Below are positions 57,907 through 59,367 of a stretch of DNA of 64,000 bases, in pieces. Every line of letters begins with the position of its first letter. Within the stretch, counting starts at the first letter, position 1. The stretch is taken from NCBI GenBank assembly GCA_017469445.1, contig JAFUGK010000015.1, positions 75,964 to 139,963 of the forward strand, in the 5' to 3' direction. Both the position numbers and the translations under genes were made by a program. This stretch comes from Clostridia bacterium (GTDB taxonomy: Bacteria > Bacillota > Clostridia > TANB77 > CAG-508). Below the pieces are notes generated by a model. That model had not been told where the DNA came from. It worked only from the letters and a program-made list of their open reading frames with translations, and made no database searches.

Positions 57907-58019
57907 CTGGGCGGACCCCATTGTTGTTGTCGTTGTTGTAGTTGTTGTTGTTCAAGTTGCCGTTGTTGCCATTCACATTCCACACGTTGTTGTTGTTGTT
58001 CTCATTAGCAGAAGAAAGC
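57907..58019 (-). repeat. DGR template repeat (TR), AAC-rich
   Basis: Minus strand reads ...AAC AAC AAC AAC AAC GTG TGG AAT GTG AAT GGC AAC AAC GGC AAC TTG AAC AAC AAC AAC TAC AAC AAC GAC AAC AAC AAT GGG GTC CGC CCA G. It is non-coding, with a stop codon just upstream in frame. It shares GGGGTCCGCCCAG with both VRs. Confidence 0.85.
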
Positions 58020-58110
58020 TACAACACACGCAACAGCCCTGGGACTCACTAAGTATTCCCCTATATTAAATACATAAATGTTTTTAATATCTAGTTTAAA
58101 CCGCTTTAAT

Positions 58111-58210
58111 AATTTAGCCTACTTACGTAAGCTAAATTATTCCATATTTTGGTGCAGTTGCCCAAAATATGGTTAGCAGGTGCTGTTTCTTCCAGAAACT
58201 AGCACCTAGC
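58111..58210 (-). other. Cluster of three hairpins between VR2/IMH and TR
   Basis: aatttagc-ctacttacgtaa-gctaaatt. ccatattttgg-tgcagttgc-ccaaaatatgg. gcaggtgct(gtttc-ttcca-gaaac)tagcacctagc. Confidence 0.55.
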
Positions 58211-58230
58211 ATAAGCTCACTTTCGTTTGC

Positions 58231-59367
58231 TTATTGGATTAAAGACTTAGATACTGTTATAACTGGGCGGACCCCACTGTAGTCGCCGTAGTTGTAGCGG
58301 TCGCTGCCCAAGAGGCCGCGGTCGCCATACACATTCCACACGTTGTTGTCGGACTCATAAGCAGAAGAAAGCCAATAATATAAGTAATTGCCACCATCAT
58401 TAGTATTAGCTGTTCCATTTATCATTGCTCCATAACTACTTTGTAATTCATTTGCTTCTTCATATGTTAATAATCTTCCTTCTGCTCCAGAACCTATTGT
58501 GCTTGTTGCATAATCTCTTGCTCTCATTATTGCATTATTTGCTTTTGTTTGTGTAGGGTCAGCTGCTGCTGCCACAGCATCTGTTGTATATGTGTTTAAA
58601 TTCATTCTTGTTCCTTCTACCCAATCACTGCTCCAATAGTTTGTACTTGAAAATGCACATTTTGTTTCGCTATATGCTGCATTTGGTTTTTGATAATATT
58701 TTCCTGTTGTTGCATCGTTTGGATCTGGATCTTTATCTAAATTGTATTTTGCAAGCAATGTTACATTTCCTGCCTGATTTGTATTGTCATCTATTAATAC
58801 ATAAAAACTTTCTGCTACTGTTTCTGTTCCTTTTGTTACATTTATTGTTACTTCTTGTCCTAATCTATATGTTCCTCCCCATATTGCATATAAGGTTCCA
58901 CTTTCACTTACTTCATCTCCTGGTGCATACATTGTTCCACTTCCATCAGCTTCTGTATTCCATCCTTTAAATCCATTTCCTAATGGAGCAACAAATCCAT
59001 AATTTATATTTCCTGTTCCTCCATTTGCATTATACGTTATTTCTGCTCCTGATGTTGCTACTACTGCAGTTGGCTGTAGTGGTACTACTGGTGTATCATC
59101 ATCGTCGTCATCATCTCCAGTTTCATTATTATTTGCACTCTCTCCCATGTATTTTGCAAATAAGTTTTCTACTTGATTTAATACCTCTTGGTCTGCATTT
59201 GCTGATGAATTATATTCCTCTACTGCATAATTTGCATTGTCTATTATGCTACTATTTCCTGTTAATGTTGCTAGTGCTACTCCTGCTAATATTAATAATA
59301 CTATTATCGTTATTACTAATGCTATTAATGTGATACCTTTTTGATTTGTTTTTCTTGCGTGTTTCAT
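58231..59367 (-). CDS. DGR variable target protein 2: pilin-like TM (KGITLIALVITIIVLLILAGVA), Flg_new repeat, C-type-lectin/DUF1566-like domain ending in VR2
   Basis: Intact 378-aa ORF. Flg_new motif ITYNANGGTGNINYGF...FKGWNTEADGSGTMYAPGD...LYAIW. CLec-like EGRLLTYEEANELQ...YYWLSS...GVRPVITV. Confidence 0.8.
   Translation of the reverse strand: MKHARKTNQKGITLIALVITIIVLLILAGVALATLTGNSSIIDNANYAVEEYNSSANADQEVLNQVENLFAKYMGESANNNETGDDDDDDDTPVVPLQPTAVVATSGAEITYNANGGTGNINYGFVAPLGNGFKGWNTEADGSGTMYAPGDEVSESGTLYAIWGGTYRLGQEVTINVTKGTETVAESFYVLIDDNTNQAGNVTLLAKYNLDKDPDPNDATTGKYYQKPNAAYSETKCAFSSTNYWSSDWVEGTRMNLNTYTTDAVAAAADPTQTKANNAIMRARDYATSTIGSGAEGRLLTYEEANELQSSYGAMINGTANTNDGGNYLYYWLSSAYESDNNVWNVYGDRGLLGSDRYNYGDYSGVRPVITVSKSLIQ
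58263..58373 (-). repeat. DGR variable repeat VR2
   Basis: Differs from TR at 21 positions, all at TR adenines on the coding strand, plus one 3-nt indel. Invariant 3' end is GGGGTCCGCCCAG. Confidence 0.85.

Follow-up and report, generated by a model that had tools for sequence, protein, structure and literature searches.

The DNA studied here, referred to throughout as the window, is a stretch of 64,000 nucleotides (64 kb) from an uncultured, gut-type Clostridia metagenome-assembled genome (MAG) of 28% GC (proteins MBQ9298595, MBQ9298596 and MBQ9298599). It carries a diversity-generating retroelement (DGR), a system in which a reverse transcriptase alters the tip of a surface protein at the adenines of a template. 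DGRs are the only known natural targeted protein hypermutation system in prokaryotes; tens of thousands of them have been catalogued, and they are under development as tools for continuous directed evolution. Read 5' to 3' on the minus strand, the locus consists of a target gene (target 2), four hairpins, a template repeat (TR), a spacer and the genes for a MutS-like protein (MSL), the accessory protein Avd and a reverse transcriptase (RT). The core together with its target spans about 3.6 kb. A variable repeat (VR) is found in target 2 (VR2) and another in a second target gene, target 1 (VR1). The features are collected in Table 1. With high confidence, the locus is a complete DGR of the MSL/Avd type; the element is genuine and belongs to a known, already classified class.

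Table 1. Features of the retroelement locus and of the island that holds it; positions are those of the window. ORF, open reading frame; IMH, initiation of mutagenic homing; MFE, minimum free energy; pI, isoelectric point; L013, metagenome contig with a sister element.
Feature	Position	Strand	Remarks
TR	57907..58019	minus	113 nt; 44 A, mostly in AAC/AAT codons
VR2	58263..58372	minus	110 nt; 3' end of target 2 coding sequence
VR1	54205..54326	minus	122 nt; in chromosomal target 1
VR2 3' flank	58210..58262	minus	53 nt; distal part of putative IMH; 100% identical to VR1 flank
Hairpin 1	58211-58234	minus	ATAAGC-AA-AC-GAAA-GT-GA-GCTTAT; GAAA loop; imperfect
Four tandem hairpins	58108..58234	minus	between target 2 stop codon and TR; MFE -60.7 kcal/mol, z = -11.6
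Spacer 3' of TR	57715..57906	minus	about 190 nt; ~85% identical to L013
MSL	57271..57684	minus	137 aa; isolated MutS domain I; between TR and avd
Avd	56934..57278	minus	114 aa, pI 8.4; overlaps RT start by 17 nt
RT	55796..56950	minus	384 aa; intact ORF; YMDD and IGNxxSQ motifs; Pfam RVT_1
Target gene 2	58231..59367	minus	378 aa; carries VR2 at 3' end
Target gene 1	54173..55267	minus	chromosomal paralogue, about 62% identical to target 2; callable ORF 54173-55207
Island	55680..63984		8.3 kb; at 3' end of tRNA-Thr(CGT); holds DGR core and target 2
Relaxase	59836..61221	minus	Mob_Pre (MobV-type)
Large serine recombinase	61514..63393	minus	Resolvase/Recombinase domains; at least 2 frameshifts

The evidence that carries this reading lies in the repeats. 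All the DGR genes are on the minus strand, and the comparison of the TR with the VRs was redone on that strand as the coding one; translated in the reading frame of the VRs, the TR gives ANENNNNNVWNVNGNNGNLNNNNYNNDNNNGVRP. Between the TR and VR2, 21 mismatches are present over 110 aligned positions, 42 of which are A in the TR. Each of the 21 falls on such an A (hypergeometric P = 2.9e-11), and none of the 68 non-A sites is changed. The spectrum comprises 11 A>G, six A>T and four A>C changes. Thirteen affect the first position of a codon, eight the second and none the third; by TR codon, AAC accounts for 17, AAT for three and GAC for one. The only indel of VR2 is a deletion of 3 nt inside an (AAC)5 run, and sliding the gap along this run leaves the mismatch count as it is.

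The initial annotation had proposed that all 21 substitutions lie on template adenines, and this was borne out over the full repeat. On the plus strand, its count of 17 mismatches in 22 triplets between 57921-57986 and 58277-58342, all of them at a T of the TR, agrees with the recount. After the offset shifts by 3 nt, from 356 to 353, four further mismatches follow, again all at plus-strand T of the TR. Substitutions at non-A template sites in comparable number, which would have spoken for another origin, do not occur in VR2. The statement that the changes affect the first two positions of AAC codons is right as to the positions for all 21, but AAC is the codon in only 17/21. The invariant 3' end said to be shared by the TR and VR2 is present, being a 14-mer. 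Judged from the sequence, the adenine-only pattern proves past retrohoming. The core of the earlier proposal, a TR/VR pair produced by adenine-specific mutagenic retrohoming, is strongly supported by this pattern along with the second VR, the intact genes for RT, Avd and MSL, a target of the C-type-lectin fold and the sister element on contig L013.

VR1 gives a second view of the same process, and the adenine-specific transfer from the TR is observed directly in both VRs. Relative to the TR, VR1 has 25 substitutions, 24 at an A of the TR and one a T>C change in the last position of an AAT codon. Two insertions are present as well, of 3 nt in a TTC run and of 6 nt in an (AAC)4 run. When both VRs are projected on the TR, they are identical at 67/68 non-A sites and at only 11/42 A sites. 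Of these 42 sites, 12 are changed in VR1 only, 10 in VR2 only, 11 in both and nine in neither, a split that matches two independent events at about 50% per site. VR1, in the chromosomal paralogue, and VR2, on the island, are by this comparison two independent products of retrohoming.

It may be asked whether a retroelement is needed at all. The TR could be a decayed, Asn-rich fragment of a paralogous gene, the differences coming from ordinary divergence or from the compositional bias of a 28% GC genome; the genome is indeed AT-rich, and the target gene belongs to a multi-copy family. However, immediately beside the VR repeats the target paralogues are 9-18% divergent, and the presence of at most one difference in 68 non-A sites within them is unexpected under plain divergence (P = 0.013). 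Besides, all 21 changes of VR2 fall on A (P = 3e-11 when rounded), the RT, Avd and MSL genes lie directly downstream, and L013 shows the same pattern. The statistics of A-specificity and the gene context effectively refute this explanation, and its chance of being right is close to nil.

With all but one of the non-A sites identical in spite of the divergence of the paralogues, both VRs were written from the present TR or a near-identical one, after the genes had diverged. An improbable variant of this history is that VR1, and possibly VR2, was written by a different, near-identical TR of an island resident earlier, and that the present TR is only its close relative. The identity of VR1 in the chromosomes of island-free strains would fit such a history, as would the differences in length (+9 and -3 nt) and the close similarity of sister TRs, for example that of L013. 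Yet VR1 and VR2 keep all but one of the non-A bases of the present TR, whereas the L013 TR, though very similar, differs from it at several non-A sites, and all the indels fall within trinucleotide runs that are prone to slippage, as has been documented for DGRs. Indels that keep the frame and adjoin AAC runs were reported in 7% of DGRs and attributed to RT slippage (Wu et al. 2018, PMC5758913); thus, the length differences of the VRs are no argument against a DGR.

The 3' boundary of the repeats was also examined. A GC-rich 14-mer, TGGGGTCCGCCCAG, forms the 3' end of the TR (57907-57920), VR1 and VR2. A search of the window that tolerated two mismatches gave no further occurrence (0.01 expected). 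The 53-nt flank that follows it in the VRs has no counterpart in the TR, where 8/17 positions match directly past the 14-mer. This flank contains the last 10 codons of the target, its stop codon and hairpin 1. The flank of about 55 nt missing from the TR in the initial annotation was, therefore, a fair description of the 53 nt measured. Its designation as IMH-like holds as far as the flank is present, but a canonical IMH begins with the GC-rich 14-mer, which the TR also has. The GC-rich start common to VRs and TR, with a non-identical continuation in the TR, is the arrangement of IMH and IMH* known from DGRs.

Hairpin 1, with its GAAA loop, begins 28 nt past the 14-mer and is the same in VR1 and VR2. 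Hairpins with GRNA loops are known to lie 4-34 bp past VRs, with GC-rich stems of 7-10 bp, and one of them was needed for efficient homing (Guo et al. 2011, PMC3240598). Across DGRs, such a hairpin or cruciform is present in a minority to a majority. Hairpins 2 and 3 of the tandem array are kept in L013 with compensatory changes. A promoter-like site at 58136-58164 is overlapped by one of the four tandem hairpins.

Between the window and L013, the spacer is more conserved (~85%) than the RT gene (77%). It has an 8-bp helix, TTTCCATA/TATGGAAA, with one compensatory pair between the two, and is closed by a terminator-like hairpin (57715-57739). On the model of the Sp region in the DGR RNA of BPP-1, the spacer is a candidate for the priming and RT-binding part of the DGR RNA. 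The conserved spacer and the compensatory hairpins fit a structured DGR RNA, two sequences being too few for proof. In an Rfam search, no family matched the DGR RNA. The only match was a SAM riboswitch (RF00162, 74 bits) at 53972-54076 on the minus strand, ahead of metK and directly downstream of target 1.

The gene set is complete, and the frames of RT, Avd and MSL are intact. The best solved relative of the RT is the Bordetella phage bRT (8ub7, E = 5e-20), which ranks ahead of group II intron RTs; by this comparison, the enzyme encoded next to the repeats is of the DGR type, and its active site is intact. The top matches of Avd are NCBIfam DivGenRetAVD (E = 1.8e-11) and Pfam bAvd (E = 1.7e-8). 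Its size, position and basic charge are as expected, and the orthologue on L013 exceeds the Pfam cut-off. MSL matches Pfam MutS_I (E = 8e-10, 39 bits, above the cut-off of 20.6) and aligns to residues 16-90 of Taq MutS, including the Phe-X-Glu motif; its pI is 9.1. The presence of this MutS-like gene places the DGR in the MSL class, which Wu et al. 2018 named 'Architecture D'. As in other DGRs of this type, the cassette encodes the small MutS-like protein along with avd and has no HRDC domain. In the survey of Wu et al., MSL was found in 16/372 DGRs, always together with avd (PMC5758913).

The protein encoded by target 2 starts at its N-terminus with a hydrophobic, prepilin-like helix, which is followed by an acidic linker, a beta domain and, at the C-terminus, a domain of the C-type-lectin fold, in which VR2 lies. 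This last domain matches dozens of C-type lectins; as in DGR targets, whose VR maps to a C-type-lectin or Ig fold, the ORF has its VR at the 3' end. Among homologues of the target, the sequence is conserved as far as ...YWLSS and from GVRPV onwards, and the part in between is hypervariable. The N-terminal N_methyl match of target 2 is sub-threshold (19.5 bits, cut-off 21.2). Its prepilin-like site, KG|ITLIALVITIIV, has Ala at +5, not the Glu of the class III motif G|FTLxE. The model of the target shows a long N-terminal helix, and its matches to geopilin are weak. There was no Pfam or NCBIfam match to DUF1566 or FGE-sulfatase in the target. Several database homologues of target 1 are called from the same internal start (MLLILAG...) as its callable ORF.

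The DGR core and target 2 are carried by an island whose ends can be read directly. It is flanked by 8-bp direct repeats, GCTCCAAA, at 55672-55679 and 63985-63992, and the empty site is seen in the assemblies L009 and L006, in which the upstream DNA of target 1 follows tRNA-Thr(CGT) directly. As an integration site, the 3' end of a tRNA gene is more typically associated with tyrosine integrases. Starting from the tRNA gene, the order on the island is a small ORF, the serine recombinase, the Mob_Pre relaxase, a 105-aa ORF, target 2, TR, MSL, Avd and RT. As a discrete insertion with direct repeats, empty sites in relatives, a recombinase gene and a relaxase gene, the island has the make-up of an integrative mobilizable element. 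A functional recombinase is, however, not found. Its catalytic RVSTEDQ segment, its resolvase/recombinase body and its zinc-ribbon part are in three different frames. One frameshift is at an A-run just past the RVSTEDQ motif, and an independent ENA assembly, like the window, has at least two breaks in the frame. The island is probably immobilised. Target 1 with VR1 is chromosomal; it is 100% identical over 1.57 kb in island-free strains, while the neighbouring DNA is ~1.2% different. No match to phages or plasmids was obtained by megablast of 54000-59500.

The course of diversification can be proposed from the BPP-1 paradigm, on which the RNA limits, the priming site, the copying by RT and Avd, the replacement of the VR and the role of the flank and hairpin are modelled. 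A minus-strand RNA containing the TR and the roughly 190-nt 3' spacer would be made. The RT, with Avd, would bind this RNA, copy it to cDNA and misincorporate opposite template A. The homologous VR, with which the target gene ends at its 3' side, would then be replaced by the cDNA. The 3' limit would be set by the GC-rich 14-mer, within which the 3' junction would fall, and by the VR-only flank and hairpin that mark the recipient. Up to about 20 Asn-type codons could thereby be recoded on the ligand-binding face of the C-type-lectin domain of a pilin-like surface protein. Slippage of the RT in AAC runs would be the source of the 3-nt and 6-nt indels. More tentatively, MSL might shield the mismatch-rich cDNA:VR heteroduplex from the host MutS, and the DGR of the island might act in trans on the chromosomal VR1. 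In Bacteroides, deletion of the host mutS raises retrohoming 5- to 10-fold (bioRxiv 10.1101/2024.11.15.621889).

These proposals can be joined into a wider and doubtful one: the DGR core would be the cargo of a tRNA-integrated mobilizable island of 8.3 kb, which on arrival rewrites its own target as well as the resident chromosomal pilin-like paralogue next to its integration site (VR1), with MSL as an anti-repair factor. If this were true, horizontal transfer would switch on hypervariation of a host surface protein in trans.

Several observations weigh against the reading as a complete DGR or against its present activity. The stem of hairpin 1 is AT-rich with an internal loop, as against the GC-rich stems of 7-10 bp in phage DGRs; because of this AT-rich, interrupted stem, the hairpin is treated only as a candidate. 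Both matches of Avd are under the curated cut-offs (44 bits against 80 for DivGenRetAVD, 35 against 40 for bAvd). Neither the MSL of L013 nor that of a further relative, the Bacilli MAG L014, retains the Glu of Phe-X-Glu, which weakens a mismatch-binding role; for the same reason, the motif was dropped as evidence of mismatch binding by MSL. In target 1, a +1 frameshift after codon 6 throws the prepilin-like leader (55207-55267) out of frame. With the recombinase frameshifted too, parts of the locus are decaying. As for length, the present TR exceeds VR2 by 3 nt and falls short of VR1 by 9 nt; neither VR is thus a plain full-length copy of it. The absence of non-A changes in VR2 bounds drift to below about 4% only.

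The repeats, moreover, do not vary among the assemblies, the variation being judged from consensus sequences. VR2 is identical in all five contigs carrying target 2. VR1 is identical in all eight, which include DGR-less strains ~1.2% diverged in the flanks. When the targets and the RT were looked up in 90% identity clusters of a collection of 15 billion proteins, each was a single-member cluster with no variant. The description of the retrohoming as active or recently active in the initial annotation is thus not demonstrated, and one consensus cannot show it. The end of the Logan contig L002 at 58239 was considered as a sign of VR heterogeneity and rejected, since a k=31 unitig must break at the 67-nt flank common to VR1 and VR2.

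That the DGR is a fossil, with retrohoming in the past and no diversification now, is a serious possibility, though somewhat short of an even chance. Silencing, loss of a host factor or a block to homing through the unequal lengths of TR and VR could each have brought it about. The invariance of both VRs, with VR1 the same even in island-free strains about 1.2% diverged, agrees with it, as do a TR whose length is matched by neither VR, the frameshifts in the adjacent recombinase and in target 1, and the one non-A change of VR1. On the other hand, the RT, Avd and MSL frames are intact and keep their catalytic motifs while the neighbouring genes decay, and VR2 has no non-A change in 68 sites; both points speak for activity. 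Furthermore, many characterised DGRs are tightly regulated and appear static in consensus assemblies, and the assemblies compared here may not represent independent populations.

Relatives of the element support its assignment as a DGR. The single pattern scan of metagenomes gave one sister element, that on L013, whose RT gene is 77% identical at the DNA level; a scan of GTDB genomes for the IMH pattern found nothing. In L013, the TR and the VR are both 110 nt long, and 25/27 of their differences are at A. It also has Avd, a pilin-like target and MSL, the last lying past the RT on the opposite strand. In L014, the RT is 39% identical at the protein level and the order TR-MSL-Avd-RT is the same.

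The prototype DGR is that of Bordetella phage BPP-1 (mtd-avd-TR-brt). Both elements have adenine-specific differences, a VR at the 3' end of a gene of the C-type-lectin fold, a GC-rich 14-nt boundary element at the 3' side, Avd and a YMDD RT. They differ in that the order here is target-TR-MSL-Avd-RT with an extra gene for a MutS domain I. The TR here precedes a spacer and a terminator-like hairpin, and in BPP-1 it lies between avd and RT. The hairpin past the VR is AT-rich and interrupted here. The carrier is an integrated island and not a phage, and there are two targets, one of them off the element.

Similarly, the 'Architecture D' DGRs, which include the Legionella DGR (Wu et al. 2018, PMC5758913), share with the present one an MSL of comparable size (137 aa, within 112-283 aa), avd, the lack of HRDC, in-frame indels by AAC repeats and multiple targets with different mutation patterns. 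The pI of 9.1 of the MSL is at the high end of 7.2 +/- 1.7, the host is an uncultured Clostridia MAG, the vehicle is a serine-recombinase/MobV island, and the MSL of the sister L013 is on the opposite strand, after the RT. Unlike Treponema denticola TvpA and the Legionella Lcl/DUF1566-type proteins, the target has no match to DUF1566 or FGE-sulfatase, and its N-terminus is a prepilin-like hydrophobic helix, not a lipoprotein signal.

The DGRs borne by integrative conjugative elements (ICEs) of Bacteroides, whose targets are pilus tip adhesins (bioRxiv 10.1101/2024.11.15.621889), resemble the present one in having a horizontally mobile integrated carrier and a pilus-type surface target, and host mismatch repair is relevant to the outcome in both. 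Here, in contrast, the mobilizable island is much smaller (8.3 kb) and has no conjugation genes, the lineage is Gram-positive, the N-terminus of the target is type IV-pilin-like and not a type V pilin, and the element has its own MutS-domain protein. The layout of the island resembles the Tn4451/Tn4453-type integrative mobilizable elements of Clostridia (PMC5704250). It differs in carrying a DGR in place of a resistance gene, in a recombinase frameshifted at least twice and in having a tRNA 3' end as its insertion site.

In principle, nothing new is seen in this DGR; it is a compact, fully delimited example of the rare MSL class. Its specialist interest is moderate and lies in the rarity of that class, the very small mobilizable vehicle and an off-island target that is unchanged in island-free strains. 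With mapped ends, two targets and an empty-site sister strain, it would be a convenient natural system for the accessory role of a MutS domain, given that host MutS suppresses retrohoming. The locus is equally suited to asking whether a mobile DGR acts in trans on resident genes and how in-frame indels arise in AAC runs.

Two further candidates were rejected. A third target paralogue, P0004 (L010, 8001-9131), shares the 477-kb contig with the window, at a distance of about 200 kb, and has no RT nearby. It was not accepted as a further target, since it differs from the TR at many non-A sites, mismatches the 14-mer at three positions and lacks the common flank; it may be the fossil or the target of another DGR. 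Compared with its orthologue P0005 in a related genome (L011/L012, 9001-10113), its differences are mainly in the C-terminal VR-like stretch. A second DGR just past the end of the window was also rejected, since the Avd-like gene at that place is part of a stretch of chromosome that the island-free strain also has, with no RT within 10 kb. This free-standing gene (L001 1-109 / L009 6883-7236) encodes an Avd-like or 23S-rRNA-IVP four-helix bundle and lies beside a repetitive ORF of 568 aa.

Some minor observations concern the DNA around the two targets. Nested AT-rich inverted repeats at 55531-55647, with arms of up to 44 nt that are 89% complementary, lie between the integration site and target 1; they are on the chromosomal side and are also present in island-free strains. 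A (TA)10 microsatellite at 59446-59468 is about 14 nt upstream of the -35 element of TTGACA-17-TAAAAT, which ranks best among the promoter-like sites of target 2. Over 18.2 kb, the window and an independent assembly are told apart by the microsatellite length alone, (TA)10 versus (TA)11; this could be a phase-variation switch or assembly noise. Elsewhere in the window, the N-terminus (19477-19665, minus strand) of the ORF at 18103-19695 resembles the prepilin-like leader of the DGR targets (tblastn, 35% identity over 63 aa).

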